Shown here in pieces: positions 12,831 to 36,478 of a stretch of DNA of 64,000 bases; the first letter of the stretch is position 1; each line of letters starts with the position of its first letter. The translations under genes were made by a program, and so were the position numbers. Origin of the DNA: a virus (taxonomy: Duplodnaviria > Caudoviricetes); the IMG/VR virus record IMGVR_UViG_3300028914_000078, positions 3,752 to 67,751 of that record; one strand, written 5' to 3'. The notes beneath the pieces were generated by a model. That model did not search any database. It saw only the letters and a list, made by a program, of their open reading frames with translations, and had not been told where the DNA came from.

Positions 12831-13210
12831 TGACACCTGAGGAGTACTTTGAGAGGTGCCGCGATATAAAGTACGCGAAGACGTGCAAGATAGGCGGGTT
12901 CGGGGAGCCGATGAGCTGCTACGGGTTCATCTATTGGTATTACAGGCTCTGTTTGGGTATGGAGCTTCCTTACGAGGATGTGGTATCCTTTGAGAGTGTC
13001 ACGGGGCTGCATTACGAGCCTACAGACAGTCCTGTGGATGGTGATGTGGTGGATATAAGGTCGCTCCGTAGTGTGTATCAGACGCATGTCGGAGTCCTTT
13101 ATAAGGATTTTGTCTACCATTTCACAGAAGATGGGCTGATGTGCAAGAACAGGTTCCGAATGGGGAACTGGGTTAAGGGGTATTACCATGTTGTTCAGGA
13201 TAAGACGTGA
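12827..13210 (+). CDS. NlpC/P60-type tail protein (lambda K-like)
   Basis: 'SCYGFIYWYY' (Cys) and 'THVGVL..FVYHF' (His); ATGA overlap. Confidence 0.75.
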   Translation: MMTPEEYFERCRDIKYAKTCKIGGFGEPMSCYGFIYWYYRLCLGMELPYEDVVSFESVTGLHYEPTDSPVDGDVVDIRSLRSVYQTHVGVLYKDFVYHFTEDGLMCKNRFRMGNWVKGYYHVVQDKT

Positions 13211-16200
13211 GATATTCAAGGCTGGTGAGTTCGAGCAGCATTTCATAAACGAGAAGGTCACCAAGGCTGATCTCTGCAGGGAATACCATCTAGACCCCGC
13301 TACTACAGAGTTCTACGGAAACAACGGGAACCTGATTGATTGCGCGGATGACGTCATACTTGATGAGCCTTTCCTTGTGGCGATGCAGAAGCCGGGTGAG
13401 CTCGGAACAGCTATAGTGGTTGGTGCCATAATTGCCACGGCATTGGCTGTCACTGGAACGATTGTATATGCTGTCGGAGTGACCTACTGGGATTGGAAGG
13501 ACATCTTCGGGTGGTTCAACCATGAGCAGGCACAGGTGGCATATGCTTACTCACTTAGAGGTTCGGCTAACCCGCGAAGGAAGGGCGGACATATAGGATT
13601 GCTTCTTGGGCGTGCTTGTGTCGCAGCTGATCAGGCCGGTATGGTCTATTCCAGTTATAACCCGAACAACCTCGTGTCTAGCGGAAGCGGTAAACAGTGG
13701 ATACACCAGTTGTTCTGCTATGGCTACAAGGATGCCGTGGTCATGAAGGACGATTCCTTCAAATCCACAGGCAACCCGCAGGGCTATATGGTTCGAATCG
13801 GCGAGAGCCCGATTGACATTTACGGCGATTCAATTTCAATTGAGATAAACAACGACAGCCCGGCTACGCCCGTGGATGTATCAGATTTTGCATATTACAA
13901 CAAGCGCTGTGTCGAGGAAGGCCTGACAATCAGGCTCGATGGTGCGGAAAGTGACGCCTCAGAGGGAGATCCGACTGCCCGTTATAAGGCCGGTGTTTCC
14001 CGCACATCTCCGACAAACACCAAGATTCTCCGTGTGGGTGTCTGTGCTCCTTACGGTTGGTACATCCAGCATGAGGGAGGCACTGACAATATCCGCGCAC
14101 TCAGGATGCACTACGGCATAGACATCAAGGCACACAGCAGCAATTCATGGCCTTCCTCCCACTGGGTCAACCATGACAGTGATGAAAAATACAACGGCAC
14201 CTATTACAGGGCCATGCATGAGGTAGACCCGGCTTCATGGCTTTCGTCCTACGGGGAGGCGACTGACCCGAACAACCAGTATGATGTCCGTGTCTATCGT
14301 TATGGATGGGATGATCCGTCCAACCTGACCAAGCAGGACACGTTGATGGTTGAGCTCGTGCAGTTCGACACACGTAACTCCGTGAATGTGTCGGGGCTCA
14401 CCGAGAAGGACAGGACGACTCCTGTCCGCATGTCGCACAGGTTCGGTCTCATGGGCATGTATGCCGAGGCCACGGATAAGTTGAACGGTTACATCAACCA
14501 GCTCAATATCGAGTGCTTCCTGAACACATACTATTTCACCGGCAACTCACCGAGTAATGATCCTTCCATGTGGAGAAAGGATGTCGATCCCTCAGAGGTT
14601 GACGACAGGAATAACCCTGCTAGTGTCCTTCTCTACATGTTGTTGAGCAACGATGCCAACCCGAGGGCCTTGAACATCGGAAGCACAAGTCATGGAAGTG
14701 CGACATCGGGCTACAGGTTGCTGTCAAATTCGGCATCGTCATATCCCGACATCAACAAAATAGACTGGTATTCCCTCAGTGAGTGGTTCCTTTTCTGCAA
14801 GAGCATGAAAGACCCCGAGAACCCGAACGATGACGGGTGGAAGTGCAATGCGTGGGTCACCGAAGAGCTTACTGTCGGTGAGATCTGCTCACGTATCTGT
14901 CTCACAGGCCGTGCCTTGTTCAGGGTCATGGATGGCAAGTACACCATACTCATACAGCGTGAGAACGACAATGTCACTCAGATGTTCACTCCGAGGAACG
15001 CTTGGGACATGCAGGAGTCCCGTTCGTTCGAGAAGCCTGCCAGTCTCGGGAAAGCCACGTTCATCGACATGGACACCGCCGAAGAGGTGGAGCGTTATGT
15101 ACTTGTTGACGAGAACAACACACTCACATACCCCGAGGACATCTCGACCGTCGCATCATCCCTTACGGATAATGCTGAGACATACGAGCTTTGGGGAGTC
15201 ACGAAGCCACATCAGGTGGCGCAGCTCATGGCTTTCCAGTTGCTCTGTAAGAGACTTCAGACCCGCACATATACATGGAGATGCTCGCTTGAGTCCATCA
15301 CCTGTGCTGTTGGTGATGTCGTGTACCTCGCCAATGATATGTTCCTGTTCAGTCTCGGCTATGGGCGCATTACTGAGGTTCTGACATCAGGCGGAAATGT
15401 CACTGGAGTCAAGGTCGACGAGTCAATGGGCATCGACCCGACCAAGAGTTACGGAATCACAATCCGAAAGAGTGACGGCACTCTTGGTTCATATCAGATA
15501 AATCAGGACACGTCTGACTCCCATACTCTGTATTTCACCACACCTGTGGCTGTATCCTCGGCCAATGTGCTTGAAGGCAATCTGTTCATCTACGGTGACA
15601 ACTCCGCGATAGGCAAGAAGGTCATCATAACAGCCATAACGCCTGATCAGGACAGAAGTGCGACAATTACCGCAGTTGACTACATCCCTGCGGTCTACAC
15701 GATTGTGGAGAACACTCCTATCCCAGCATATGTCAGCGGAATCAGTGTATATGGCAGCGGAGCGAATGTCTCCAAGGGTGTCGTGCCTCCTGTCAGCTAT
15801 CAGCAGGGCGCTACCGGAGCGGCGGGTGCAAGGGGTTCGGCTTGGTCGAGTGGAACCGCAATCCACGGTTCTGATCCTAACAATAGGTACAGGGGATTTG
15901 CCGGTCTTGTTGGGGATTACTATCTGAACACAGCCACTAATGATGTCTATATATGTGTAGAGGAAGGCGATGTTCGGAACGCTCTGTGGGAGTGGGTTGC
16001 CAACATCCAAGGGGATCCGGGTGATGTCTCTCAGGTCAAGTACGAGATAGAGTATGCACTTAGTACATCCCCGAACGACCCTCCGTCATCTACACCTGCT
16101 GTGTGGGGATACGATGATGATGAGTCATACGGTGCCGAAGACCCATCGGATGACGCAGAGTTCGAGTATGGTTTTCCTGACGTGTTCGATTGGGGAAGCA

Positions 16201-18269
16201 ATTATGACAGATGGTATAAAGGTCTCTATGTTTGGCAGAGGCTGAAGATCACCGATGCGGATGGAGCTGTCACATATACCGACCCGACATACTGTAAGGA
16301 AATCACCGAAAGTCTCATTTCGGGCTGTATTTTCACTGTTGTGCTGACAGACAGCGACGGCAATGGAGATACGCAGACATGGGAGAGGAACCTCGCTGAT
16401 TCGACTAACACTGTTACTATCCAGTTCAGAGTCGTGGCTAGGGCGTACGGGGGTACGTCAGCTTTCCTGTCAGCCCTCACATCCGTGAAGATAATACCGT
16501 TCAAGAACACGACCGCACAAACGGAGATCCCTTTGCCATCCCCGTCATCTGTGACGATTGATTCGGTCACAAGGCTCGCGACAGCAGTCTATACGTTGTA
16601 TTTGAATAAGAACAAGGATTGTGACTCGTTGGTGATAGATGCCACGCTTGTGGATGCTTATGTGGGCGAAGATGGTAATTCGTACACAATAACTTCCAAG
16701 GCAAGCGAGACAATGACTGCTGTGGATGTGACTGTGGCTGACCCGTTCGGCGGTCTTTTCCCCACTACCAAGAACAGCGTAAACACACTCGAGGCTGCTG
16801 ACGCCATTGCGGCGGCTTACTTTACAGGCAAATACGATGGTGTCATAGAGGGCGCCACCTATGCATTGAACTGTGACAACATCTCAGGTGCGAGCTTCCT
16901 CGGACTCCGCACGTACATAACAGGTTCGGGATGGACGTGGCTCAGCGGTGAAACTTTGGGTAAACCGAGGGTCTCTGAAATTTGTGCTAAAGCGCAGAAA
17001 GCCGTTTTGTCGATGATAACTCCCGGAACGGTCACACAGAGTGACTTCGCATACTTCAACACATTGATTGTCGGCATAATCACTGCTGACTATATAGGTG
17101 CGAAGCAGATAACATTGCAAAATGGCGGCCTTATTCAGAGCAGCGGCATAACGGAGGCAAACATACAGGACAACGGTTACCTTGATAAGGACGGATTCCG
17201 TCTTGAAGATGAAGGTATTCTCCGTTGTAAATCAGGATATTTCGGTGACATCCGTATTGCTGGGCAGTCCGTACTTGAGGGTCAGGTAGACAATGACTCT
17301 CTTTCCACATTCCCTGCTGCAACCAGCAAGACAATCACAGCCAGCTTCTCGCCGTCAGTCAAAACAGGAACCGCCGGCCACTATACCGTCTATGCATATG
17401 GACTGGCAAAAACAGCAATCAAAGCGAGTGCAGCGTTCGGAGAGACGGCTTTCTCGGGATACTTCACAGGAACTGTCGTTATTGATGGTGTCACGTATAC
17501 AGGCACGCTGCTTTCACCCATACGGGTGTATTATCAAGTCTTAACTGACGGGTCACCGGTTTTCGAGATAGGCGGCGCCGGATTCTCTATCGAATACGGA
17601 TATATCAACCGCCTCGGGAGGTACTCCTTCCCGGATGCGACAGATTATGCCATCTGCTCCAGTGTCAAGTATCAGCAGGGAACTCCCGTTGGTAATCTGA
17701 CTTCCGTTTCCTTGTCGGCAATAGTCAGCGAGGGCGGTTTTTATAGCCATGACATGCTGCCGAAGACTCCGAATGGAGATACAATCGGTGCTAGTGGCCA
17801 GCGTTATAAGGAAGTATGGGCAGGTGCGTTCCGTGGCGGATATATCCATGCCAATGAAGCCGAAAGCAGTCTAGGAGATCTGAACGTAGGTAAAGTCAAG
17901 AGTCGCGATGTCGTTCCCCCCGGAGCCATCGTACTCATTGATCAACGTGTAGACAGACAGGCTTCCGACTATCTTAGACATTTCCTTCCCTGTGACGGAT
18001 CCGCATTATCGAGGGAGGACTACCCAGATCTCTTCTATGAAATCGGTCTCTCCTGTACGCCTGCATACTCTTCATCAACCAGCTATTCCGTCGGTGCCTG
18101 CGTGACATATGGAGGCGAGACTAGGTGGGGATATAGGTGTATCAGGGCTTGTCAGGGGATAGATCCGATGGACGGTCTCAATGAGTACTGGGAAGAAGGA
18201 TACTTTAAGCTTCCGACGGCATCTTCTGTAATACTGCAGACCGGCTGCTATATGATTTCAACCTGGTGA
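13188..18269 (+). CDS. Central tail fibre/host-specificity protein (J-like) with C-terminal tail collar domain
   Basis: 1693 aa; 'NNPASVLLYML', 'TQMFTPRN', 'ESITCAVGDVV', 'ITAVDYIPAVY'; collar motif 'PPGAIV...FLPCDGSALSREDYPDLFYEIG...FKLP'. Confidence 0.85.
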   Translation: MLFRIRREIFKAGEFEQHFINEKVTKADLCREYHLDPATTEFYGNNGNLIDCADDVILDEPFLVAMQKPGELGTAIVVGAIIATALAVTGTIVYAVGVTYWDWKDIFGWFNHEQAQVAYAYSLRGSANPRRKGGHIGLLLGRACVAADQAGMVYSSYNPNNLVSSGSGKQWIHQLFCYGYKDAVVMKDDSFKSTGNPQGYMVRIGESPIDIYGDSISIEINNDSPATPVDVSDFAYYNKRCVEEGLTIRLDGAESDASEGDPTARYKAGVSRTSPTNTKILRVGVCAPYGWYIQHEGGTDNIRALRMHYGIDIKAHSSNSWPSSHWVNHDSDEKYNGTYYRAMHEVDPASWLSSYGEATDPNNQYDVRVYRYGWDDPSNLTKQDTLMVELVQFDTRNSVNVSGLTEKDRTTPVRMSHRFGLMGMYAEATDKLNGYINQLNIECFLNTYYFTGNSPSNDPSMWRKDVDPSEVDDRNNPASVLLYMLLSNDANPRALNIGSTSHGSATSGYRLLSNSASSYPDINKIDWYSLSEWFLFCKSMKDPENPNDDGWKCNAWVTEELTVGEICSRICLTGRALFRVMDGKYTILIQRENDNVTQMFTPRNAWDMQESRSFEKPASLGKATFIDMDTAEEVERYVLVDENNTLTYPEDISTVASSLTDNAETYELWGVTKPHQVAQLMAFQLLCKRLQTRTYTWRCSLESITCAVGDVVYLANDMFLFSLGYGRITEVLTSGGNVTGVKVDESMGIDPTKSYGITIRKSDGTLGSYQINQDTSDSHTLYFTTPVAVSSANVLEGNLFIYGDNSAIGKKVIITAITPDQDRSATITAVDYIPAVYTIVENTPIPAYVSGISVYGSGANVSKGVVPPVSYQQGATGAAGARGSAWSSGTAIHGSDPNNRYRGFAGLVGDYYLNTATNDVYICVEEGDVRNALWEWVANIQGDPGDVSQVKYEIEYALSTSPNDPPSSTPAVWGYDDDESYGAEDPSDDAEFEYGFPDVFDWGSNYDRWYKGLYVWQRLKITDADGAVTYTDPTYCKEITESLISGCIFTVVLTDSDGNGDTQTWERNLADSTNTVTIQFRVVARAYGGTSAFLSALTSVKIIPFKNTTAQTEIPLPSPSSVTIDSVTRLATAVYTLYLNKNKDCDSLVIDATLVDAYVGEDGNSYTITSKASETMTAVDVTVADPFGGLFPTTKNSVNTLEAADAIAAAYFTGKYDGVIEGATYALNCDNISGASFLGLRTYITGSGWTWLSGETLGKPRVSEICAKAQKAVLSMITPGTVTQSDFAYFNTLIVGIITADYIGAKQITLQNGGLIQSSGITEANIQDNGYLDKDGFRLEDEGILRCKSGYFGDIRIAGQSVLEGQVDNDSLSTFPAATSKTITASFSPSVKTGTAGHYTVYAYGLAKTAIKASAAFGETAFSGYFTGTVVIDGVTYTGTLLSPIRVYYQVLTDGSPVFEIGGAGFSIEYGYINRLGRYSFPDATDYAICSSVKYQQGTPVGNLTSVSLSAIVSEGGFYSHDMLPKTPNGDTIGASGQRYKEVWAGAFRGGYIHANEAESSLGDLNVGKVKSRDVVPPGAIVLIDQRVDRQASDYLRHFLPCDGSALSREDYPDLFYEIGLSCTPAYSSSTSYSVGACVTYGGETRWGYRCIRACQGIDPMDGLNEYWEEGYFKLPTASSVILQTGCYMISTW

Positions 18270-18282
18270 GAAAGGAGAGCAC

Positions 18283-18876
18283 ATGCAGACAAGAGACGCA
18301 TACAGGTTTGATCTTGACACAAGAGAATATCTCGGTATCCAACAGGCGTACCCCAACATCAGGAGGGAGGGTGAGTATATCTTACCTTACGGCTGCACAT
18401 TCGTGGCACCGCCTACGTACGGAGAGTTTGAGATTCCTGTGTTTGACGGCACATCGCAGTGGACTGTCGTTCCCGACTACCGCAGGAAAGAGGGCTCTGA
18501 GGGCAAGCCCTATTATAGGGATTCGGATTACTGGTGGGCTGAGCCCCAGTATATGGAGACCTATGGGGATATTCCTGAGGGCTGCTCGTTCGACAAATAT
18601 GAGAAGCCACAGGACGTGCTTGACGTGATCGAGTTGCAGAATATGTATGACACTCTTGTGGAAGAACTGCAAAGCACAGACTATTATGCACGTCGTTTGT
18701 ACGAGTATGAACAGGGATATGACAGCGATCCTGAGAGGGAAGCGCGGTATAGGTCTGAGTTGCAGAGGCTTGTGAAAGAACGTAAAAAGCTTGCACCATG
18801 GGGAGCACAGATAGATGTGTTAAAAGCACAAATTGTGCTAGAGTATGGTGAGGAAGCGCTGAATCATTTGAATTAA
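18283..18876 (+). CDS. Tail fibre assembly chaperone (Tfa-like)
   Basis: 'YRFDLDTREYLG...PYGCTFVAPP...PVFDG..WTVVPDYR' directly after the collar-containing fibre. Confidence 0.75.
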   Translation: MQTRDAYRFDLDTREYLGIQQAYPNIRREGEYILPYGCTFVAPPTYGEFEIPVFDGTSQWTVVPDYRRKEGSEGKPYYRDSDYWWAEPQYMETYGDIPEGCSFDKYEKPQDVLDVIELQNMYDTLVEELQSTDYYARRLYEYEQGYDSDPEREARYRSELQRLVKERKKLAPWGAQIDVLKAQIVLEYGEEALNHLN

Positions 18877-18888
18877 AGGAGTGTGCAT

Positions 18889-19233
18889 ATGAAACGTTTT
18901 TCCATTTTGGTTTTGTTGTTGTCGGTGTTCGTATTGTGCTTGCTGCCTTCTTGCAAGGCAACTCCCGAAATACCTGTTGAAGAACAGGTCGTCGGGTGGT
19001 GGGAAACTGAGGTTGGTGCATATGATTATCTTTTGCACATACGGGCTGACAAATGGGCTGTGTTTTTCAAAGTGCACAACGATGAAGTGTATGAGATCGG
19101 CGTCTACCAGTGGTTCATCGAGAACAATCTTTTTGTAATGGTAGACGAGCAACGTTATCCCGACATAGCGGAGTTCAGCCTCTCGGGTGACACTCTTGTT
19201 TTGGGCACGCTGATATACGCCAGAGTTTACTGA
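18889..19233 (+). CDS. Predicted lipoprotein inserted in the tail module
   Basis: MKRF + hydrophobic stretch + lipobox 'LPSC' then K; visibly more AT-rich than its neighbours. Confidence 0.7.
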   Translation: MKRFSILVLLLSVFVLCLLPSCKATPEIPVEEQVVGWWETEVGAYDYLLHIRADKWAVFFKVHNDEVYEIGVYQWFIENNLFVMVDEQRYPDIAEFSLSGDTLVLGTLIYARVY

Positions 19234-19322
19234 TGCCGCCCGTAATCGTCATATCGCGGGCACTTTGGATTTGATATTTTTTACGATTAGTATAGAATTG
19301 AGATAGACACGGAGGAACATAT

Positions 19323-19988
19323 ATGGCAGTTAAACCTTTCGCGAACGCACCTCATGCAGCGAAGAGCGCTATAGCCACTTCTTGGCTCATAGGAGTACAG
19401 GCGGGAAACACACCCAATGCAGTCAGTGAAATGAAATACCTCACCGTTGGTGAGTTCACTGAGTACGTGCGCTCGAATTACGGTTCGATGTGGAATTATA
19501 GGGGTGAGTGCAGCAATGCGACACCCACAGACCCTGTCAACAATGACTATTTCCTTGCTGTCTCGACTTTTGCAGAAGACGGAACAATTTACACAGCCAA
19601 CCACCTCTATGCTTATAACGGCAACACATGGGACGATGTATCCAATGTGCTGAATCAGTACGCAAGACAGTCCGCACTCGATCAGACGAATGTGGCTGTC
19701 GCGGCTCTCGAGGACAGGGCGGACACGGACGAGTCGAACATCACGTCTCTGGACGAAAGGGTTACGACCCTCGAACAGGCGGCACAGAGCGGCTACAACT
19801 ATAAGGGTGACTGCACGTACGCGAACCTGCCTACGAGCGGCCAGCAGCTCGGTGACATGTGGTACGTGACAGACCGCAACGACAACTATATATGGAACGG
19901 CTCGGTGTGGCGCGCACAGAACAATGTCGGCTGGGCGTGGGTGCTCCAGTCAGACGGAAACTACAAGCTCGGGCTTTTAGAGCATTAA
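19323..19988 (+). CDS. Tail-associated/fibre adaptor protein
   Basis: Two 'NY(R/K)G.C' repeats, a short coiled coil, 'GDMWYV...YIWNG..W'. Confidence 0.6.
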   Translation: MAVKPFANAPHAAKSAIATSWLIGVQAGNTPNAVSEMKYLTVGEFTEYVRSNYGSMWNYRGECSNATPTDPVNNDYFLAVSTFAEDGTIYTANHLYAYNGNTWDDVSNVLNQYARQSALDQTNVAVAALEDRADTDESNITSLDERVTTLEQAAQSGYNYKGDCTYANLPTSGQQLGDMWYVTDRNDNYIWNGSVWRAQNNVGWAWVLQSDGNYKLGLLEH

Positions 19989-19998
19989 GGAGAAATAT

Positions 19999-21405
19999 AT
20001 GGCATACATTTATCCGCTTACAGACGAAACAGGAAAAGACCTTGCCGACGGCATCCATGCCGTAGCCGAGGCATTGGGTGGCCAGACGAAGCTCAGTTTC
20101 AAGAGACTTCAGCAAATCATCCGCGCTGGCCGCATCGACGAATATCTGGCCATAGGCGATGAGATCGAGGTCGAGAAGGAAACCGGACTCAGTATCAGCG
20201 TCCATACGACGGGATCTCTTTCCGCCACGATTACCGAGGCTACATGGAATCAGCATGTCGAACATCTTCACCATGGCGTCTATGAGTTCACATACGACGG
20301 CTATGAATGGTCAGAGCATGAGCTGGGTGAAGGACTGGATCTTTCATTCTACGGAATCAATGTGTCCGGCACTGCTGCAGAGGGCGATGTCATCGCCGTT
20401 ACGGTTGCCACGGCCACGCTCGTGTTCCAGTATGTCGCCAAGGACAAGGACGCACCCCGCAACCCGAACCTCACGCATTCAGCCACGTTCCAGATGAAGA
20501 ACTGCTACCGCAGTTTCCAGTTCGACGCATCGGAGGCACTGATATGCGCTCCGTTCCAACTTGTCGCGGGAACGACCTATCAGATTTATCTCTATCAGAA
20601 CTCAAGCGGCACATACTATCTGAACGCAAACCTTCAGAACAAGTATCTCAATTTCACTCCGTCGGTGAGCGTTCCTGCGGGTGGTCAGCTTGTCGTGACA
20701 ACCGGAGATATGAGAAACAGCACGAGCATCTCGGATTTGAAGCTGTCGTCCTATGCCAACAAAGGCGATACTACGGCCCTTGAAAGTAACATCGCATGTG
20801 TCGAGGGGACTTCCGGTGACGGCTCCACATCCATCGGATCCGCGAACACCACGGCGGACAAGGCCAAGGTCAATCATACGGACAGAACGCTGTACGGTTC
20901 GAACAACTGGCAGCAGAGCGCTCTCAGGCTGTGGCTCAACTCAGACAAGGCCGCGAATGCATGGTGGAGCCCACAGGGGCCGTTCGACAGACGTCCTAGC
21001 GGTTACGATATCCCCGGCTTCATGTACGGCATCGAGAAGGACTTCCTCGATGTCCTGCAGGAGGTTCAGACTCCGGCTGTGCAGAACTGGTTCGACGGCG
21101 GTCAGAAGGTCACGACCTACGACAAGTTCTTCGTCCCGTCCAACAGCCAGATATGGTTCACTTCAGCGGAAACAGAGGGCAAGCCGTGGGATTTCTATAC
21201 GATGTTCAGCGACAACGCGGAAGCTTCATATGGTGCGGATTCCAACCGTATCAAGAGGCTTAATGGAAATGCGACTTACTGGTGGACTCGCACTCCGCAC
21301 GGGTCTCTCGCTACCGGTGAGTACTCTGTTAGTCCTTCTGGATCTTATGGCACCGATTGTGCGTACTATTCCATCGGGGTGGCTCCCGCCTGCGTTATTG
21401 CGTAA
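19999..21405 (+). CDS. DGR target protein: receptor-binding tail protein with C-terminal C-type-lectin-like (DUF6273-like) variable domain
   Basis: 'YGSNNWQQSALRLWLN', 'YDKFFVPS', 'YWWTRTP', 'GVAPAC'; the VR occupies the last ~39 codons. Confidence 0.9.
   Translation: MAYIYPLTDETGKDLADGIHAVAEALGGQTKLSFKRLQQIIRAGRIDEYLAIGDEIEVEKETGLSISVHTTGSLSATITEATWNQHVEHLHHGVYEFTYDGYEWSEHELGEGLDLSFYGINVSGTAAEGDVIAVTVATATLVFQYVAKDKDAPRNPNLTHSATFQMKNCYRSFQFDASEALICAPFQLVAGTTYQIYLYQNSSGTYYLNANLQNKYLNFTPSVSVPAGGQLVVTTGDMRNSTSISDLKLSSYANKGDTTALESNIACVEGTSGDGSTSIGSANTTADKAKVNHTDRTLYGSNNWQQSALRLWLNSDKAANAWWSPQGPFDRRPSGYDIPGFMYGIEKDFLDVLQEVQTPAVQNWFDGGQKVTTYDKFFVPSNSQIWFTSAETEGKPWDFYTMFSDNAEASYGADSNRIKRLNGNATYWWTRTPHGSLATGEYSVSPSGSYGTDCAYYSIGVAPACVIA
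21288..21393 (+). repeat. DGR variable repeat (VR)
   Basis: Aligns ungapped to 21916-22021 over 106 nt; 23 mismatches, all opposite TR adenines. Confidence 0.97.
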
Positions 21406-21427
21406 GGAATCTAAAATCTTAATCAAT

Positions 21428-21445
21428 CGCCCCCGGCAGGGGGCG
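21428..21445 (+). promoter_or_regulatory. DGR target-recognition hairpin/cruciform after IMH
   Basis: CGCCCCC-GGCA-GGGGGCG, 7-bp GC stem with a GRNA-type loop, 22 nt after the target stop codon. Confidence 0.85.
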
Positions 21446-21492
21446 CTGCATCTTTGGCTGTCTTGGTCAAATCCGCATGGGAGGACGTGAAA

Positions 21493-21909
21493 ATGAGTGT
21501 ACCTGAGCTCAAGCGTGACATCGAAGAGCTTACTGTGATAACGAAAGGCAGGGCGTTCGTGGCAAGGACTATACGCATCTGCGGCAACGAGAAACACTTC
21601 GCCAAAAGGCTGAGATGGGATTTTACCCACAAGTTACCTTCATTGGCCGTGGATCTCTTTGTCTGTTGCAGGAAGGCGAACCGTGTCCGTGTCGAGTGTC
21701 AGAAAGACGCTCAGATGAGGTTGGGCTTCTGGAAGGAGGCGTTGAGCGATGCCGATGCGCTGATGGGTCTCATAGACCTTTGCACCGAACTGTCTTCAAT
21801 GCCACTCAATAAAGTTCAGACATGGAGTGCTGATCTTGATGAGGTTCAGAGGCTCATAGAGGCACGTATCAAATCCGACAGAAGGAGGTATGCGCCTTAT
21901 GAAGGGTGA
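21493..21909 (+). CDS. avd: DGR accessory variability determinant (four-helix bundle)
   Basis: GGGAGG RBS then 'MSVPELKR'; 'HFAKRLRW', 'KANRV', 'KSDRRRY'; sits between VR and TR. Confidence 0.88.
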   Translation: MSVPELKRDIEELTVITKGRAFVARTIRICGNEKHFAKRLRWDFTHKLPSLAVDLFVCCRKANRVRVECQKDAQMRLGFWKEALSDADALMGLIDLCTELSSMPLNKVQTWSADLDEVQRLIEARIKSDRRRYAPYEG

Positions 21910-23248
21910 TGTCTGTCGCACTCCGAACGGATCTAACGCTAACAATGAGTACAATGTTAATCCAACTGGATCTAATGACAACAATAATGCGAACAATTCC
22001 AACGGGGTGGCTCCCGACTACAAGAACAGCCTGATTCAAGTAAGCGGATATCTCCCGCCGAACGCCGTGCAACCTTGCAGGGAGACATCATCCTGTCCCG
22101 TCGTTGACGGGCGAAAAGCGGATGTCGATGTATCCGACCCATTATGGGACGTCGATGCTGTGAACGGCATTCCGTTCGACTATGCTGATTTGATCGAGGC
22201 TGTCAGGGAATGCAGATGCAACGTCCTTTGGAAAGATTCCGTGGCGGGTTTCAACAAGAACAGACTCGTCAATTGCGCAAAACTCATGTATGCGCTGCAT
22301 GACGGAACATACAGACTGTCCCCCTATTCCTGTTTTCATATCTATGAACCGAAACCACGGGATATTGTGGCAACGGCTTTCCGGGATCGTGTGGTACAAC
22401 GGGCCATGTGCGATACATACCTTTATCATGCCCTTACCAAGAGTTTCATTTATGATAACTGGGCCTGTCAGATAGGAAAAGGCACAACCAATTGCAGGAA
22501 AAGATTGAAATACCTTTTGCAACGCCACTGGCGCCAATACGGCAACAACGGCTGGGTATTGAACGTCGATATCAAGAACTATTTCGGCTCGACTCCGCAT
22601 TGGGTGGCAAAACAGACTGTTGCCGAGCGTGTTGATAATCCATGGGTACGCAATTATGTCTTCATGCTCATTGATTCTTTCCATGGGATTACGGGCGATC
22701 ACAGGGGAATCGGTCTGGGAAGTCAGATATCGCAGTTGATTCAGCTCGCGGTTTTGGACGAGCTCGACCACATCCTCAAGGAAAAGATGCACATGAAGGT
22801 CTATATCCGTTATATGGACGATATCAAGATCGTGAGCAACGACAGGCAGAAGCTCGTGGAATGTCTCAGGATCATCGAAGACTATCTTGCTGAAAGAGAC
22901 CTCTGTCTCTCGCCCAAGAAGACATATATCGCGCCGCTTTCCGACGGTATTAGATTCCTCGGTTTCAGATACAGGCTTACGGATACAGGTTTTGTCACCA
23001 TGAGTCTCGACAAGAAGAAACTCCCGAAGGAACGGCGGAAGATCAGACAGCAGATGCCACATCTTCCGAAACAGAAGATGGACTTCGCCTATCAGTCATG
23101 GAAGGCGAATGCAACACAGGGAACGACATGGGCCGCAGTCCGGCGCATGGATTCATATTACTACAGCAGGAGGAGAAGACATTATGCCCAAACTCAGGAA
23201 AGTCTCCAGAGAGGAGATAGAACAGGAAAAGAGGGTCAAGCTGCTTGA
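21899..23248 (+). CDS. DGR reverse transcriptase (true start uncertain, 21899 to ~22170)
   Basis: 'FRDRVVQ', 'QIGKGT', 'DIKNYF', 'GIGLGSQISQ' (DGR-type GxxxSQ), 'YIRYMDD', 'FLGF'. Confidence 0.95.
   Translation: MKGDVCRTPNGSNANNEYNVNPTGSNDNNNANNSNGVAPDYKNSLIQVSGYLPPNAVQPCRETSSCPVVDGRKADVDVSDPLWDVDAVNGIPFDYADLIEAVRECRCNVLWKDSVAGFNKNRLVNCAKLMYALHDGTYRLSPYSCFHIYEPKPRDIVATAFRDRVVQRAMCDTYLYHALTKSFIYDNWACQIGKGTTNCRKRLKYLLQRHWRQYGNNGWVLNVDIKNYFGSTPHWVAKQTVAERVDNPWVRNYVFMLIDSFHGITGDHRGIGLGSQISQLIQLAVLDELDHILKEKMHMKVYIRYMDDIKIVSNDRQKLVECLRIIEDYLAERDLCLSPKKTYIAPLSDGIRFLGFRYRLTDTGFVTMSLDKKKLPKERRKIRQQMPHLPKQKMDFAYQSWKANATQGTTWAAVRRMDSYYYSRRRRHYAQTQESLQRGDRTGKEGQAA
21916..22021 (+). ncRNA. DGR template repeat (TR)
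   Basis: 13 AAC/AAT codons in the VR reading frame; shares the invariant GGGGTGGCTCCCG with VR, then diverges (IMH* vs IMH). Confidence 0.97.
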
Positions 23249-23348
23249 GGCTGAGAATTACGAGCTCAAGGCCAAGCTGGACTATGTAGCCATGATGACC
23301 GACGTGGATATCCCCGTCGAGGAACAGGAGGGAGAGAATGACCTTTGA
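23184..23348 (+). CDS. Small coiled-coil tail-module protein (XkdW-position)
   Basis: AGGAGGAG RBS before ATG 23184; 'LKAKLDYVAMMTDVDI'; precedes an XkdX gene; overlaps the RT 3' end. Confidence 0.65.
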   Translation: MPKLRKVSREEIEQEKRVKLLEAENYELKAKLDYVAMMTDVDIPVEEQEGENDL

Positions 23349-23466
23349 GAAAATCAAGAAATACTACGACAGGGGTCTCTGGAACAAGACAATGGTCAGA
23401 AATGCCGTTGTTAAAGGAAAGATTACACCCGAGCAGTACGAGATGATCGTACACGAACCGTATTGA
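23338..23466 (+). CDS. XkdX-family protein (not in the ORF track)
   Basis: Hand translation MTFEKIKKYYDRGLWNKTMVRNAVVKGKITPEQYEMIVHEPY*. Confidence 0.85.
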   Translation: MTFEKIKKYYDRGLWNKTMVRNAVVKGKITPEQYEMIVHEPY

Positions 23467-23473
23467 GGAAACC

Positions 23474-23755
23474 ATGAAGCTGAGTAAAGACCACATCTTC
23501 CACTTCGTGGCATCCGCTTTCGGAATGATTGTTGGATATTACATCATGAACCTTTTCTCTTGTCCGTTCTGGCCGTGCATCGCGGGAGGCATCCTCTTCG
23601 GTCTCGGTCTCGGGCTTGGAAAAGAGTTCGGTGACATGATGAGTCCCGGAAACAAGTTTGACTTCACCGACCTATTGGCCGACCTTTTGGGGTTGGTTGC
23701 AGGAACGGGCATCGTCCTTGTCATCGGACTCATCTCTCGGCTCATACCGAACTGA
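23474..23755 (+). CDS. Small membrane protein (YfiM/VanZ-like)
   Basis: 'KDHIFHFVAS..', 'GLGKEFGD', 'DLLADLLG'; three hydrophobic segments. Confidence 0.55.
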   Translation: MKLSKDHIFHFVASAFGMIVGYYIMNLFSCPFWPCIAGGILFGLGLGLGKEFGDMMSPGNKFDFTDLLADLLGLVAGTGIVLVIGLISRLIPN

Positions 23756-23934
23756 AGCGGCATGACTCTGTGGAGCTTGCCTAGAGGGGAAGGTTGCGAC
23801 TGACCCCTCTTTTGTGACATAATATCATCCGAGAACAAACCTTAAATGGTTTAAGGGTGGAGGTTGCGACCTCTGCCCTTTATTTTTTCCTTCCACTATT
23901 TACAACGTCGGAACAAATACGCTAAAATGTAGGC

Positions 23935-24201
23935 ATGAAAGACACAGAGATAAGGATAAGAACCGACAATGAGTTCTTGGAGAAAGTGGACTATCTTCAA
24001 CATATCAATGACTACAAGAATAGGAGTGATACTGTGAGGAAGGTAGTGGAGAAAGAGTACAGAAAAGAGGTTTTCCCCTGTGGAACGTGCAAGTGCTATG
24101 AGGACAAGAAATGTATAATCCTCAATGCCGAGGTTGATCCGAGGGAGAGGGATAACAGATGCTCTTTAGGGAAGGAGAAGGAAGATGGACATAGGTTCTG
24201 A
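23935..24201 (+). CDS. Ribbon-helix-helix-like regulator with Cys-rich tail
   Basis: 'EIRIRTDNEFLEKVDYL....NRSDTVRKVVE'; upstream TTTACA-18-TAAAAT. Confidence 0.55.
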   Translation: MKDTEIRIRTDNEFLEKVDYLQHINDYKNRSDTVRKVVEKEYRKEVFPCGTCKCYEDKKCIILNAEVDPRERDNRCSLGKEKEDGHRF

Positions 24202-24640
24202 TAGAGGTTATCCAGCATCGTCATTGAGTAATTTTGCACCACATCCGTTTGTGATTGATGGTGTTGAATGTGCCTCAATGGAAGGCTTTCTACAATCTTT
24301 GAAGTTCAAGAGCCCTGAGATGCAGAGGGAGGTTTGCAAACTTGTTGGGATGAAAGCAAAGATGAAAGGCAAACACAAGACATGGTGGAAAACCCAAACT
24401 TTGTACTGGCAGGGCAAAGAGTATAAGAGGGATAGTGAAGAGTATCAAAGATTGTTGGACAGAGCATACGAGGCATTGGCTAGAAATGATGGATTCATCA
24501 GAGCATTAAAGGCTACTGGCAATGCGAGTCTTACTCATTCAATAGGCAAGAATGATATTAGTAGAACAGTTCTTACTCAACGAGAATTTTGTTCGAGACT
24601 TTTGTATTTGAGGGAGAAGCAAGATGGACTTACTGATTAA
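24185..24640 (+). CDS. NADAR-superfamily protein similar to T4 gp30.3
   Basis: 'SSLSNFAPHPFVIDG..SMEGFLQSLK', 'TLYWQG', 'GFIRALKAT...LTHSIG', 'TVLTQREF..L' match the gp30.3 pattern as I recall it. Confidence 0.75.
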   Translation: MDIGSDRGYPASSLSNFAPHPFVIDGVECASMEGFLQSLKFKSPEMQREVCKLVGMKAKMKGKHKTWWKTQTLYWQGKEYKRDSEEYQRLLDRAYEALARNDGFIRALKATGNASLTHSIGKNDISRTVLTQREFCSRLLYLREKQDGLTD

Positions 24641-25715
24641 AGGGATGCACTTACCCAAGCTGGGTTATGTGACCACCATCACCATTTTCCATGACGGCAC
24701 TGTTGCAGACAAGATGGGTAATGTCGAGACGGTAAAGGCCGTAGAGCTACCGTCTCACGGAGAACTCTGTGATAAAGACATACTTAAAGAAGCAACCAAA
24801 AATACAGAGATTCGCAACTCAAGGGGAGAGATTTATCCAATAGGAGAGGCAATCGCGAAGATGATTGATGAAGCTCCTACAGTCTTGGAGGCAACAGAAT
24901 GAGAAGAAAATATGACTATGCACCAATAAGGCTTACTGAATCCGAATATAAAACACTCAGAGGAATTGAAGAATCTGCAAAACTCACGAACTCAAATCTA
25001 GTTGTTTATTACCTTTATAAGTGGGATATCAATGTCATTTGTAGTTCAAGTGACGAAATTGGTTACAGCTATCAATACCGTAAATTGTTAAGATGGTGGT
25101 TTTATGTTTTGACATGGATTCCTGCTACATTATGTAGGTTTATAAACGCCTTGTTATATTTGGGCCTTTTCAATTTTGAACCATATCAGAGATTGTTTGT
25201 CACATATGAAATTAAGAATCGTGGTGAATCTTGTTATTCAGATGAATTAGAGACAAGAGAGTTTGAACGCATTGATGATTTTTGGGAGCAAAGAGAACAG
25301 GAGGCAAGCAAATGACAGAATGGAAACATGGATGTGAGTACTGGGAGAAAGAAGACGGACGTTACAAAGAAATTAATTGCCCTATGCAAGGGAACTGCCC
25401 TGCATATTACAAGGAATTAGGGAAGCAATGTCCAATGAACGCGCACCCGATTGATTATCGGCCCGAAGGATGCCCGCTGGAGGCAAGCAAATGAGTAGAG
25501 GAAGTGTAATAGACAGGGCAAGACTCAGAGGCAAGCCCCTTCTCGATATGTGCAAGGATAGACCCGACATCATCTGCCGCAACGAATATGGGGAGGATGA
25601 TCACCGCCAGTTCTGCCGTGGGTTCGTGGACAGAATGACGGACGACTACCTGCCCGAGTGCCGGAACTGCGGTGCATGGGTCTATAACGCGGAACCATTG
25701 GAGGCGAATGGCTGA
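24624..25715 (+). CDS. Four overlapping small hypothetical genes (24624-24902, 24899-25315, 25312-25494, 25491-25715)
   Basis: Chained ATGA overlaps, each with a GGAGG RBS; the last two are Cys-rich. Confidence 0.65.
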
Positions 25716-25802
25716 CTATATGGGGATTCGTCGGGGGCTGCCTGTTGGGAACGGGCCTGACCACCATGCTGATATGACTGGTCGTCAGGTAGTTAGTCAG
25801 TA

Positions 25803-25831
25803 TTGCACCCTTCGCGTTTTGAATATATACT
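25803..25831 (+). promoter_or_regulatory. Sigma70-type promoter for the Ig/lysis cassette
   Basis: TTGCAC-17 nt-TATACT. Confidence 0.55.
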
Positions 25832-25866
25832 GTAACCGCAGAAGATAACAGACAGGAGGCACATAT

Positions 25867-26565
25867 ATGGCTAGACGCCCTTACCCCGCACTCATACGTA
25901 TCGCTCGCAGGCTCGAGGCTATGTTCGGCGGTACAATCAGCAATGACCCACCTCTCATCAGGATCGCACAGGCACTTGAGGGAGGGCAGTATTCGGACGA
26001 GAGAATCGCAGCCCTTGAGACGCGTATTGGGGATCTTGAAACGCGTGTCGAAGCACTTGAAGGAAGTCAGGCTTCCATCACAGTCACAGTCAAGATTGAC
26101 GGGGTGGCCACAGCTGGGATCGACGTGACCGCCACCAAGGGGGAGACAGTCCTCACAGGAACAACAGGTGAAGACGGAACGTACAGGTTCCATGTCGGAG
26201 TCGGAGAGTGGACAATCGAGGGCGTCCTCAGTGGCACAGAATACTATGACATCACTGATGCAGAGGTGACAGTCGAAGCCGGTGATGCAGCTACGGCCAA
26301 CGTCACAGCCAAGGCAATCCTGCCTGATGCGCTCACCGTCAAGACACCTGCCACCAAGCTGGTTTACGATGCAGGTGATCCTGTCGACACCACAGGTCTT
26401 GTGCTGACAGTCACATACACAGACGGAAGCACGAAGGACATCTCAGAGGGATTCACAGCAACTCCCGCTGAAATCGCAGCAGACACCACATCAATCACAG
26501 TCAGCTACACTGAAGGAGATGTGACAGTCAACACGGGATATGACATCACCGTGAATGAAGGATAA
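25867..26565 (+). CDS. Ig-like domain virion protein (prealbumin-like + bacterial Ig-like domains)
   Basis: 'TGTTGEDGTYRF..GVGEWTI'; 'LTVKTPATKLVYDAGDPVDTTGLVLTVTYTDGS..ITVSYTEG'. Confidence 0.75.
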   Translation: MARRPYPALIRIARRLEAMFGGTISNDPPLIRIAQALEGGQYSDERIAALETRIGDLETRVEALEGSQASITVTVKIDGVATAGIDVTATKGETVLTGTTGEDGTYRFHVGVGEWTIEGVLSGTEYYDITDAEVTVEAGDAATANVTAKAILPDALTVKTPATKLVYDAGDPVDTTGLVLTVTYTDGSTKDISEGFTATPAEIAADTTSITVSYTEGDVTVNTGYDITVNEG

Positions 26566-26576
26566 AGGAGTACAGT

Positions 26577-26804
26577 ATGAGTTGGATCACTGAAAACTGG
26601 GCTTACATTTGCTCAGGTCTTTTCGGACTCGTCGTCTTGGCAACAATCATTGTCAAGTTCACACCGACTACAAAGGATGATTCTGTCATGCACAAGATCA
26701 TCTCGTTCATCGACCATTTCTCACTTGCCAAGACCGCTGATGACAAGGCCCTCATCGAGGTAGCCAAGCACATCGACGAGAGCAAGAAAGAGGAGGCAAA
26801 ATGA
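26577..26804 (+). CDS. Holin-like membrane protein
   Basis: 'MSWITENW..I...L...ATIIVKFTPTTKDD' pattern, 1-2 TM segments, before the spanins. Confidence 0.65.
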   Translation: MSWITENWAYICSGLFGLVVLATIIVKFTPTTKDDSVMHKIISFIDHFSLAKTADDKALIEVAKHIDESKKEEAK

Positions 26805-27097
26805 ACAACGGGGCTGTAATCAGTGTTCTGATAGGAGTCATAGGTGCGCTGCTTGGGGTCTTCGGCCTCAGCAGCGCCGCCCGTTCATCACAAGCGAAGA
26901 AAGCAGCTGAGAAGCGCGCTGATAACGCTGAGAAGATAGCCGTAGACCTCATAAGGAAAGAGGAGAGGACAGTTAAGGAGGTCTCTGATGCACACAAGGA
27001 GACAGAACAGATTGCAGAAGACAGGAAGAGCTCTGAGAGCCCTGCTCCCACTCCTGCTGGCAGTACTGCTGACAAACTTGACAGGTTGCGCAAGTAG
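26801..27097 (+). CDS. i-spanin (Rz-like)
   Basis: N-terminal TM followed by a charged coiled coil. Confidence 0.65.
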   Translation: MNNGAVISVLIGVIGALLGVFGLSSAARSSQAKKAAEKRADNAEKIAVDLIRKEERTVKEVSDAHKETEQIAEDRKSSESPAPTPAGSTADKLDRLRK

Positions 27098-27386
27098 TTC
27101 GCTCCCTGAGGAAGAGGGGAAGCCGGTAATCGACGGCACAGCTACACTTCTTCTGCTTCAGATGCCTGACATGCCCTCATCTCCGTCATTCCCATCGGGG
27201 CTCGATTGGGGTTATGACGAGGGGCGTAATCTATACACGCTTGACGATGCAGGTGTAGACGCTCTGCTTGCGTTCCGTGATGACCAGTATGGTTCAGCAG
27301 ACACAAGAGGCTTTCTTTATGATTTGGAGACATGGCGTCTGCAGTATGACGCGATTGTACGGAGAATAATCGAGCTAGGACTCTGA
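26988..27386 (+). CDS. o-spanin lipoprotein (Rz1-like)
   Basis: Overlaps the i-spanin in another frame; lipobox 'LTGC'; Pro-rich mature part; exact start uncertain. Confidence 0.65.
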   Translation: MHTRRQNRLQKTGRALRALLPLLLAVLLTNLTGCASSSLPEEEGKPVIDGTATLLLLQMPDMPSSPSFPSGLDWGYDEGRNLYTLDDAGVDALLAFRDDQYGSADTRGFLYDLETWRLQYDAIVRRIIELGL

Positions 27387-27445
27387 TTCGGGTTGTAATC
27401 CTAGAGCGGTTACGTTATACTGCTGATGTAGAGAGGTGACTTACT

Positions 27446-27841
27446 ATGCCCACATGGCTCACGATAGTTCTTACGATTCTTAGTTCATCCGTGACATTGG
27501 AACTGATACACTGGTTCGTGTCGAAGAAACGGAGACTGGATGAGAAGAACATCTTCATCGAGGCTCTTCCACAGAAGATCAGTGACCTTGACAAGAAGAT
27601 GGATACCGTACAGACGACAATCGAGAAGGACAGTAAGCACTTCGAAAAGATTGACTCCGCCTTATCCGAGGTGCAGAAAGCCCTCAACCTTAATGCAGAG
27701 GGAACTGCAATCGGACTTGAGAATGACCTTATAATCTTCAACGCCTTCCGAAATCACCACATAAACGGTGAGTCCGAGAAGGCGGAAAAAAAAGTAAAGG
27801 ATTACCTGATGGCTAGTGCAAAGGAGACTCTGAAGGTATGA
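27446..27841 (+). CDS. Membrane-anchored coiled-coil protein (holin/antiholin-like)
   Basis: N-terminal TM, coiled coil; own promoter TTGTAA(27393)-17-TATACT(27416). Confidence 0.55.
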   Translation: MPTWLTIVLTILSSSVTLELIHWFVSKKRRLDEKNIFIEALPQKISDLDKKMDTVQTTIEKDSKHFEKIDSALSEVQKALNLNAEGTAIGLENDLIIFNAFRNHHINGESEKAEKKVKDYLMASAKETLKV

Positions 27842-35974: not shown

Positions 35975-35993
35975 AGAGGTGAAGGAGGAAAAC

Positions 35994-36476: not shown

Positions 36477-36478
36477 AC

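Follow-up and report, generated by a model that had tools for sequence, protein, structure and literature searches.

Positions 19999–23248 of the window (the whole stretch of 64,000 nucleotides that was analysed) contain, in this order, a target gene ending in a variable repeat (VR), a GC-rich hairpin, the gene avd, a template repeat (TR), a spacer and a reverse transcriptase (RT) gene. The features, which are directly established, are collected in Table 1. We are highly confident that together they constitute a complete diversity-generating retroelement (DGR) of the BPP-1 type.

Table 1. Coordinates of the cassette and of two neighbouring genes (positions in the window).
Feature	Position	Strand	Remarks
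J-like central tail fibre gene (1693 aa)	13188–18269	+	phrog_31 central tail fiber J 2.1e-36; phrog_469 tail protein 3e-23
DGR target gene (468 aa)	19999–21405	+	C-terminal DUF6273 / C-type-lectin-like domain, VR at extreme end
Variable repeat (VR)	21288–21388	+	A-templated sites 21298–21374; 3′ end is the GC-rich GGGGTGGCTCCCG (21376–21388)
IMH-equivalent, VR side	21389–21429	+	Unrelated to TR-side sequence; contains target stop 21403–21405; invariant among close relatives
Target-site hairpin/cruciform CGCCCCC-GGCA-GGGGGCG	21430–21447	+	7-bp GC stem, 4-nt loop GGCA (fits 5′-GRNA)
avd (138 aa), accessory variability determinant	21493–21909	+	phrog_3206 'Avd protein of DGR' 5.5e-13
Most likely RT translation start	21882–21901	+	Shine-Dalgarno AAGGAGGT (21882–21889), ATG 21899 (alternative ATG 21890), within avd 3′ end
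RT ORF (449 aa from ATG 21899)	21899–23248	+	RT core from about 22175; GxxxSQ 22718–22735, YMDD 22811–22822
Template repeat (TR)	21916–22016	+	34–36 A, 13 AAY codons; in frame within RT ORF, codon phase as in VR
Spacer (Sp-like) RNA 3′ of TR	22025–22193	+	97% nt identity to L013 (RT core: 89%)
XkdX-family small gene, closes tail-fibre module	23338–23466	+	phrog_134 4.8e-14; TIGR01669 28.0 bits vs cut-off 28.2; PF09693 on orthologues

A first-pass annotation of this DNA had aligned VR (21288–21393) with TR (21916–22021) over 106 nt without gaps and had counted 23 differences, all at adenines of TR. We reproduced this alignment exactly, with no stop codon and no mismatch at a base other than A (A>T 9, A>G 8, and A>C 6 in the direction TR to VR). 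With 36 adenines in the 106 nt of TR the chance of placing 23/23 mismatches on A is P 2e-14. The reported change of all 13 AAC/AAT codons was also recovered, including AAC>CTC (21307), AAT>GGT (21316), and AAT>TGT (21358). An independent search returned the same repeat pair (21288–21391 and 21916–22019, spacing 628), and no additional remote VR is present in the 67,751-bp genome. While the count of 23 stands, two of the mismatches (21389 and 21392, residues 464–465) lie 3′ of the GC-rich element and are invariant in 13/13 close homologues and, at the nucleotide level, in all related loci that were aligned. Both are hence fixed differences between IMH and IMH* rather than products of mutagenesis, which leaves 21 substitutions in the mutagenised stretch.

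The invariant GC element and the divergent IMH/IMH* that had been described are both present, as VR and TR have GGGGTGGCTCCCG in common (22004–22016 in TR) and differ downstream of it. The hairpin with its GGCA loop was likewise found where it had been described. It is kept in all relatives, and in L015 three compensatory changes of stem pairs leave the loop unchanged. It fits the published rule for DGR target sites, a GC hairpin of 7–10 bp with a 4-nt GRNA loop (PMC3240598); its distance from the end of the TR/VR homology is 41 nt, slightly above the reported range of 4–34 bp. Shared GC element, divergent flank, and downstream GRNA hairpin are thus the target-site signals of a DGR.

The diversified protein

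Residues 290–467 of the target belong to Pfam DUF6273 (59.4 bits at a gathering threshold of 23.5), which is a published C-lec target domain of DGRs (PMC10743442, PMC11792537). A fold prediction for the C-terminus had been proposed as a check, and a lectin-like fold was obtained; VR is situated at the end of an ORF with a C-type lectin fold, as is characteristic for DGRs. The 468-aa protein includes an inserted beta-sandwich. The target shares only about 29–38% identity with the best database phage, and a scan of 185,579 species genomes returned 0 bacterial carriers or prophages with this target subfamily. Comparison of the target sequence with the PDB gave nothing meaningful, and there is no sequence match to Mtd: the target is of the DUF6273 type here and of the Mtd type in BPP-1.

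From gene order and fold the target can reasonably be regarded as a tail receptor-binding protein, since the J-like fibre gene marks the surroundings of the cassette as the tail module. It is rather unlikely, in our opinion, that the diversified protein is a surface adhesin of some other kind, such as a Hoc-like decoration of the head or a tentaclin-like protein, directed to mucus, glycans, or non-host ligands. Such a role is hinted at by the match of the DUF6273 part to phrog_10993 'Hoc-like head decoration' (3.1e-16), by the known occurrence of DUF6273 also in tentaclins and in Hoc-like DGR targets, by the Hoc-like gene adjoining the DGR of the phage FP_Brigit, and by a bacterial IgA peptidase domain as the best solved match of the target. 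Nevertheless, the target is flanked by J-like fibre and tail-fibre-like genes and by the XkdX gene, with which tail modules end, and this gene order is kept in all relatives. In addition, the target is devoid of Ig-like repeat domains, and its VR has the C-terminal position seen in targets of the Mtd type, in contrast to the N-terminal one of tentaclins.

Variation among related genomes

The contig L017 is identical to the window in the flanks of VR (1289/1289, 87/87, and 417/417 nt, in total 1,793), whereas the VRs agree at 77/100 positions. Zero substitutions in 1,793 flanking nucleotides against 23 in 100 nucleotides of VR leave no time for ordinary divergence, so the diversification is very recent. 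Among the related loci the TRs are 99/100 identical and the VRs 63–79/100. Across 13 proteins that are ≥ 88% identical, the 13 AAY sites have an entropy of 2.61 bits compared to 0.097 elsewhere, and protein pairs with 1–3 differences outside these sites differ at 9–13 of the 13. The AAY sites of the homologues are occupied only by residues that NNY can encode, and differences between TRs at bases other than A are mostly mirrored in the VR of the same genome. In the comparison of TR and VR, 8/8 cassettes of the clade are A-specific with at most one non-A mismatch per cassette. Hypervariation restricted to A sites among otherwise identical genomes is a direct observation; from this comparison of contigs from different samples we infer mutagenic retrohoming.

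It could be argued that the DGR is a fossil with activity in the past and none at present in this genome, and that the VR differences of the relatives are inherited and selected alleles. Decay does occur in the family, since the related temperate phage L021 has lost avd, TR, RT, and the hairpin but retained the target. For the present genome we consider this very improbable, as all ORFs and motifs are intact, the cassettes of the clade are intact in 8 of 8 cases, and relative to L017 the 23 changes in VR stand against none in the 1,793 flanking nucleotides.

Reverse transcriptase, Avd, and the in-frame template

The RT is intact as had been claimed and carries both diagnostic motifs; motif 4 reads GSQISQ, which is of the GxxxSQ and not of the GxxxSP type. 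It matches RVT_1 (3.9e-18) and phrog_1423 (6e-85). The best match in the PDB is 8ub7_A (1.5e-22), by the title of the PDB entry the RT of a DGR ribonucleoprotein, compared to 1.2e-10 for the group II protein 6me0 and 1.7e-4 for the retron protein 5hhj. Judged by sequence, the RT appears to be closest to bRT of BPP-1 among the solved structures and to belong to the DGR clade. The nearest RTs of named phages (31–40% identity) come from known DGR phages such as Faecalibacterium Lelie and Toutatis (39.7%), Roseburia Shimadzu, and nd12. Relatives in IMG/VR reach at most 41% identity, and 9/11 of them gave a TR/VR pair whose mismatches are A-specific to 100%; in the remaining two an unrelated repeat was selected by the script. 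That the RT stems from a group II intron, a retron, or a defence system and that the repeat is coincidental has a negligible probability, and a group II or retron identity was rejected: although the scoring NCBIfam models are those of group II RT/maturase, Drt3a, and retron St85 and several phage records call homologues 'retron-type', the scores remain far under the curated cut-offs (98.2 bits vs 300 for TIGR04416, 48 vs 200, and 34.3 vs 235 for NF038233), neither group II intron RNA nor retron RNA matches at E ≤ 1 within 19000–24500, the best solved relative is a DGR RT, the present protein has GxxxSQ rather than GxxxSP, and the A-only mismatches with the above P value are incompatible with coincidence.

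The assignment of avd, also made in the first-pass annotation, is supported by its PHROG match and by its fold. The AF2 model (pLDDT 88) is a four-helix bundle whose top Foldseek matches are 2gsc, 2rld, 8ub7_B, and 4dwl_D (probability 1.00, TM 0.62–0.75 for the query and 0.70–0.88 for the target). For 4dwl_D, the Avd of BPP-1, TM is 0.69/0.88 and the rmsd 2.0. Sequence searches of the PDB, with the single sequence as well as with an 11-sequence profile, gave nothing meaningful and did not reach the BPP-1 Avd. By fold and PHROG an Avd hence adjoins TR and RT, as in other DGRs, and the family and fold membership of all three proteins is directly established. These matches, together with the GRNA hairpin and the A-site hypervariation with identical flanks in the population, support a complete and recently active DGR and bear out the BPP-1 architecture that had been proposed.

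The RT most likely starts at ATG 21899, which is preceded by the Shine-Dalgarno sequence AAGGAGGT, and gene callers picked the equivalent start on the relatives. An internal start at GTG 22160 was rejected, as it has no Shine-Dalgarno sequence, is changed to GTA in L014 and to GGA in L015, and does not occur in L019 or L022. TR and spacer are in frame inside the RT ORF throughout the clade, and the frame is kept through indels. The spacer forms conserved and covarying hairpins in folds of the individual sequences; RNAalifold on the MAFFT alignment of the spacers gave 13 pairs only, with the variable hairpin misaligned. By analogy to BPP-1 the spacer is probably the priming and scaffold RNA. 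The Rfam model RT-2 (RF03077) scores 20.9 bits on this spacer and 20.5–30.8 at the same place in five cassettes, the present one included; all scores including the best (30.8 in L015) are below the gathering score of 40, and the spacer is not a member by the rule of Rfam. Its positional recurrence suggests a divergent relative of RT-2. The in-frame TR and spacer within the RT ORF, a clade-wide feature, and the weak match of the spacer to RT-2 are the less ordinary features of the cassette. We tentatively propose, as one possibility that we hold to be somewhat less than even, that in this clade TR and the priming spacer, instead of being an untranslated leader, are translated as the 5′ portion of the RT gene. 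In that case the RT would have an N-terminal extension of ∼90 aa with the spacer and the Asn-rich TR as its coding sequence, the transit of ribosomes might be coupled to the use of the template, whether in competition with it or in favour of cis action, and the spacer would link the orphan motif RT-2 to DGRs.

From the BPP-1 model we take over the cDNA chemistry, the role of the spacer in priming, the oligomeric state of Avd, and the binding of a receptor, and we infer the following course. The avd-TR-RT transcript would give rise to an RNA comprising TR and the structured spacer. RT and oligomeric Avd (pentameric in BPP-1) would produce a cDNA from TR with misincorporation opposite adenines, and this cDNA would replace the target gene's 3′-terminal VR, guided by the GC-rich element as well as by the GC hairpin and GRNA loop downstream. 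As an outcome the 13 AAY codons would be randomised (15 residues each, no stops) as well as codons 447 and 451. These codons lie on the C-terminal strands of a C-type-lectin-like domain of a tail-fibre-module protein which most likely binds the receptor.

Carrier phage and comparison with known systems

The carrier genome (67.7 kb, 67,751 bp) is complete by CheckV and belongs to a tailed phage, probably a siphophage. It derives from gut or rumen-type metagenomes. The phage encodes DnaB, a DNA polymerase, a clamp loader, SSB, a UvsX-like recombinase, SbcCD, and a primase, but no integrase, resolvase, protelomerase, rve transposase, or ParB was found in it. Its own replisome and the lack of lysogeny genes thus support the earlier designation as a lytic-type phage. 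In contrast, no support was obtained for the diderm host that had been considered probable: in the nearest RTs, the type of the target domain, and the XkdX gene the phage shows traits typical of Clostridia/Bacillota phages, and we lean towards Clostridia. Among about 50 ORFs Pfam and PHROGs recognised no endolysin, spanin, or other envelope-specific gene. The capsid protein is ∼29–30% identical to those of Proteobacteria phages and of Faecalibacterium FP_Brigit alike, and the polymerase is ∼22% identical to those of Bacillus and Clostridium phages. A megablast of 13000–24000 against phages gave no match to a close annotated relative. FP_Brigit, an unrelated temperate myophage, was rejected as a guide to the host.

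The cassette resembles the prototype of BPP-1 (mtd-avd-TR-brt) in gene order, in the C-terminal VR of a lectin-fold protein of the tail module, and in the A-specific differences between TR and VR. The likeness extends to the GC-rich 3′ element of both repeats, the divergent IMH/IMH*, a GC hairpin further downstream whose 4-nt loop fits GRNA, the four-helix bundle of Avd, the GxxxSQ and YMDD motifs of an RT with bRT as best PDB match, and a putative structured spacer RNA 3′ of TR. Apart from the target type, both systems differ in that the 140-nt spacer of BPP-1 is non-coding, whereas TR and spacer lie within the RT frame here, and in that the RT-10 motif has been reported for BPP-1, whereas the present spacer resembles RT-2. 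Moreover, BPP-1 is temperate, whereas the carrier phage lacks an integrase and encodes a replisome of its own.

A DUF6273 C-lec target with VR at the C-terminus is also found in Faecalibacterium and Roseburia phages and in the gut phages nd4 and nd12 (PMC11792537, PMC10743442). However, these are temperate prophages or small siphophages, and their targets differ from the 468-aa protein with inserted beta-sandwich. FP_Brigit, a myophage with integrase and host-dependent replication, differs from the carrier phage as well. The first-pass annotation had regarded the lytic-type setting with an own replisome as the notable part. This argument is weak, since DGRs in non-temperate phages have already been published for crAss-like phages (PMC11054128) and for the Bacteroides phages 'Bacuni' (PMC8143477). 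There too a lectin-fold receptor-binding protein is diversified by a DGR and lysogeny is not demonstrable, and the crAss-like phages also possess own replication proteins. Nevertheless, these are separate phage lineages with Bacteroidota hosts, and the epsilon-crAss RT has GxxxSP instead of GxxxSQ. An architecture similar to ours is 'group 3' of the DiGReF survey (PMC3521204), which reports overlap of annotations only. Beyond this, we find here the whole TR and the spacer RNA inside the ORF, in the phase of VR, with a strong Shine-Dalgarno sequence and start just upstream and a frame that is kept through the indels of the clade.

The DGR described here is a clean case of a well-known system and not a new kind, and the known picture of how DGRs work is unchanged by it. 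It adds a clean and demonstrably active DGR to the few in seemingly strictly virulent phages with their own replisome, and such virulent-looking phages would be easier to use than prophages for work on host range. The near-identical genomes with differing VRs together with the decayed L021 form a comparative set for the exploration of receptor space by a DUF6273 lectin tip. In addition, the in-frame TR and spacer offer a testable handle on the function of the DGR RNA versus its translation, and the recurrent RT-2-like RNA offers one on the role of the orphan RT-2 motif.

The repeat pair and the cassette around it

An unbiased repeat search recovered the repeat (21288–21391 and 21916–22019, spacing 628), and base-by-base comparison extends it to 106 ungapped positions, 21288–21393 against 21916–22021, with 23 mismatches. 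The first-pass annotation, which had placed the variable repeat (VR) and the template repeat (TR) of a diversity-generating retroelement (DGR) here with 23 differences confined to adenines, is borne out in this respect. The downstream copy, the TR, carries A at all 23 mismatches (A>T 9, A>G 8, A>C 6), and the probability that 23 of 23 mismatches land by chance on its 36 adenines is P = 2e-14. The TR also holds 13 in-frame AAC or AAT (AAY) codons and, as had been claimed, all 13 are altered in the VR with no stop created. The mismatches at 21389 and 21392 lie 3′ of the shared GGGGTGGCTCCCG, where the TR/VR homology effectively stops. The corresponding residues 464–465 do not vary in 13 of 13 close homologues, nor in any related locus, and because of this invariance we regard both mismatches as fixed IMH/IMH* differences. 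Thus, the notion of 23 mutagenised differences holds for the 21 substitutions in the diversified stretch and fails for these two sites. Scanning all 67,751 bp of the genome with the TR's non-A positions brought up VR and TR and no third site.

Features of the cassette and its surroundings, and RT-2 matches in related contigs
Feature	Position	Remarks
J-like central tail fibre gene	13188–18269	upstream of target gene
Target gene	19999–21405	C-terminal DUF6273 domain, 59.4 bits (cut-off 23.5)
Hairpin CGCCCCC-GGCA-GGGGGCG	21430–21447	41 nt 3′ of GC element
avd	21493–21909	PHROG family 'Avd protein of DGR', 5.5e-13
RT frame	to 23248	RVT_1 3.9e-18; phrog_1423 6e-85
RT motif GSQISQ	22718–22735	
RT motif YMDD	22811–22822	
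XkdX-family gene	23338–23466	downstream, end of module
RT-2 match, L015	6037–6191	
RT-2 match, L022	3745–3855	
RT-2 match, L014	5274–5440	
RT-2 match, L020	5524–5719	

The hairpin agrees with the experimentally established rule for target-site hairpins, a GC stem of 7–10 bp and a 4-nt loop 5′-GRNA (PMC3240598). The other upstream neighbour of the target gene encodes a tail-fibre-like N-terminus.

The best solved relative of the reverse transcriptase (RT) in the PDB is 8ub7_A (1.5e-22), from an entry entitled 'Diversity-generating retroelement (DGR) ribonucleoprotein reverse transcriptase', as against 1e-10 for group II maturases and 1e-4 for retron RTs. Assignment to the group II, Drt or retron RTs was rejected, as the respective models of NCBIfam, a collection without any DGR model, all score far under their cut-offs; within 19000–24500 Rfam detected neither a group II RNA nor a retron RNA. 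Among named phages the closest RTs are those of known DGR phages of Clostridia, namely Faecalibacterium Lelie/Toutatis (39.7%), FP_Brigit and Roseburia Shimadzu, together with nd12 and nd4, two unassigned gut phages. A-only TR/VR pairs accompany 9 of 11 IMG/VR relatives of the RT (36–41% identity), and for the remaining two the repeat chosen by the script was an unrelated one. Avd is too divergent for sequence matches in the PDB. The top Foldseek rows for its AlphaFold model (pLDDT 88) are Avd-family bundles only (2gsc, 2rld, 8ub7_B and 4dwl_D), the last being the 'Avd molecule from Bordetella bacteriophage DGR' (TM 0.69/0.88, rmsd 2.0 Å).

Template repeat and spacer in the RT reading frame

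A strong Shine-Dalgarno (SD) sequence, AAGGAGGT at 21882–21889, and an ATG at 21899 lie within the 3′ end of avd, and the frame opened by this ATG runs through the TR in the phase of the VR and through the spacer into the RT. As the sequence reads, TR and spacer are here not an untranslated leader. An SD-preceded start is found 18–27 nt 5′ of the TR in all eight cassettes of the clade (the window, L013, L014, L015, L018, L019, L020 and L022), in which the RT frame is free of stops through TR and spacer while the other two frames contain 1–9. The distance from this start to the RT core takes five values (270, 279, 285, 288 and 315 nt), each divisible by three. The GTG at 22160, the sole nearby candidate for an internal RT start, is not conserved. 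Among the distant relatives, 9 yielded a TR/VR pair, and in all 9 the RT frame excludes the TR. The conservation of the start and the maintenance of the frame suggest that an N-terminal RT extension made up of TR and spacer is translated. This layout is not new, because DiGReF already lists, as 'group 3', cassettes in which the TR overlaps the annotated RT open reading frame (PMC3521204).

In comparison with L013 the spacer, the 160 nt 3′ of the TR, is better conserved (154/159 identical positions) than the RT core (956/1074), and it contains motifs that do not vary as well as hairpins with stems that covary from genome to genome. The sole Rfam match in the region is the RT-2 RNA (RF03077), which aligns over its full model length at 22025–22193 (20.9 bits; E 0.0067, calculated for the local stretch). 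In L015 (30.8 bits), L022 (27.7), L014 (22.9) and L020 (20.5) the sole relevant match is likewise RT-2, again along the full model and 12–15 nt past the TR. These matches, all under the gathering score of 40 in the five cassettes (20.5–30.8 bits), suggest that the orphan RT-2 motif may be a class of DGR spacer RNA. In BPP-1, the prototype from a Bordetella phage, the priming adenosine comes from the spacer, and Weinberg et al. placed the RT-10 motif at the equivalent position, with the guess that further motifs of the RT series play this part in other DGRs (PMC5737381). A DUF3800-VII RNA (RF02967) lies at 9887–9965 of L008, an unrelated IMG/VR contig that carries a DGR, and its 51.1 bits exceed the gathering score.

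Signs of recent activity in related assemblies

Activity was assessed on related assemblies. The target protein is one of 14 that cluster at 90%, drawn from JGI, ENA and Logan assemblies. In the 13 full-length members of this cluster the 13 AAY-templated sites have a mean column entropy of 2.61 bits, as against 0.097 bits elsewhere, and contain only NNY-encodable residues. The window protein differs from its homologue P0122 at 12 of the 13 AAY sites and at one residue outside, and from P0128 at all 13 and at two residues outside. The related locus L017 is identical to the window over the target (1289 nt), the intergenic region (87 nt) and avd (417 nt), and its VR differs at 23 of 100 positions. 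At the nucleotide level, related loci have TRs identical at 99/100 positions where the VRs share 75–79/100. In L013, L014 and L015 the TRs differ at non-A positions, and each genome's own TR base is mostly present in its VR. Repeated transfer of information from TR to VR with adenine mutagenesis predicts such patterns, which ordinary divergence cannot yield. Hypervariation at A sites amid identical flanks, as seen between related assemblies, thus upholds the earlier view of an apparently active DGR.

The cassettes of L013, L014, L015, L019, L020 and L022 are intact and A-specific with targets 56–92% identical, as is the cassette of L018, which belongs to the same 90% cluster as the window. In L021 a target of 59% identity is followed by a truncated avd remnant, and hairpin, TR and RT are all missing 3′ of the target. 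Genes for an integrase and for HTH regulators are present on this contig. Judged by its gene content, L021 is a temperate relative in which the DGR (3501–5450) has decayed, a natural contrast to the intact cassettes.

Two assemblies show irregularities. L017 (1734–4022) is 100% identical to the window in target and avd but follows L013 in TR, spacer and RT start, and at GGGGTGGC[T/G]CCCG its VR has T and its TR has G; either recombination in the area of the TR or a chimera made in assembly accounts for this locus. The 65,889-bp contig L016 ends ∼95 nt 3′ of the target gene, apparently because the VR/TR repeat and the heterogeneity of the VR broke the assembly there.

Carrier phage, host and known DGRs

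The window corresponds to positions 3752–67751 of an IMG/VR record (67,751 bp) that is 100% complete according to CheckV; the samples were presumably ruminant gut metagenomes, as the record names lead us to suspect. The phage encodes a head protease, a major head protein and a tape measure protein, and for replication and recombination a DnaB-like helicase, a family-A-type DNA polymerase, a clamp loader, SSB, a UvsX-like recombinase, SbcCD, a primase, an SF2 helicase and a DnaD-like initiator. No tyrosine/serine recombinase, protelomerase, rve transposase or ParB was detectable in the phage, and none of 185,579 bacterial species genomes contains a relative of the target subfamily. With replication genes present and lysogeny genes undetected, the description as a lytic-type phage with its own replisome stands as far as absence of evidence goes. 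A weak UvsY-like match (E 0.0012, 35979–36476) lies ∼1.2 kb upstream of the UvsX-like recombinase gene (37652–38914) with an SSB-like gene (36473–37594) in between, which hints at a T4-style recombination mediator pair. The ORF 24185–24640 (phrog_652, 1.3e-48; Pfam Phage_30_3 on an orthologue) is consistent with a T4 gp30.3/NADAR-like gene.

A diderm host had been considered probable, for which we see no support. The closest RTs, the target domain type, the XkdX gene and the DnaD-like loader are typical of Bacillota phages, especially those of Clostridia; a weak, sub-threshold Rib-domain match is also counted as typical of them. Weighing against this, similarity of the capsid is just as low to phages of Proteobacteria, and searches of 23474–27841 and of the rest of the window brought up no endolysin, holin or spanin family. 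We consider a Bacillota host fairly probable, and the diderm Negativicutes are a possible host. In the lysis-gene searches the sole matches were a VanZ-like small membrane protein or lipoprotein (23474–23755) and the weak, sub-threshold CarboxypepD_reg/Rib-domain match (25867–26565).

By mechanism and membership the cassette is a BPP-1-type DGR. It differs from BPP-1 in its target (DUF6273 instead of Mtd), in the placement of TR and spacer within the RT frame, in the type of spacer RNA (RT-2-like, sub-threshold, versus RT-10) and in the lifestyle of the carrier phage. Benler et al. (2018) found DGRs in temperate phages only and expected lytic examples to turn up. DGR cassettes have since been reported widely in crAss-like phages (PMC11054128) and also in Bacuni phages, for which lysogeny could not be demonstrated (PMC8143477). 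The occurrence in a lytic-type phage with its own replisome is therefore less notable than first proposed, and the DGR described here is a further, very well supported example of a known system.
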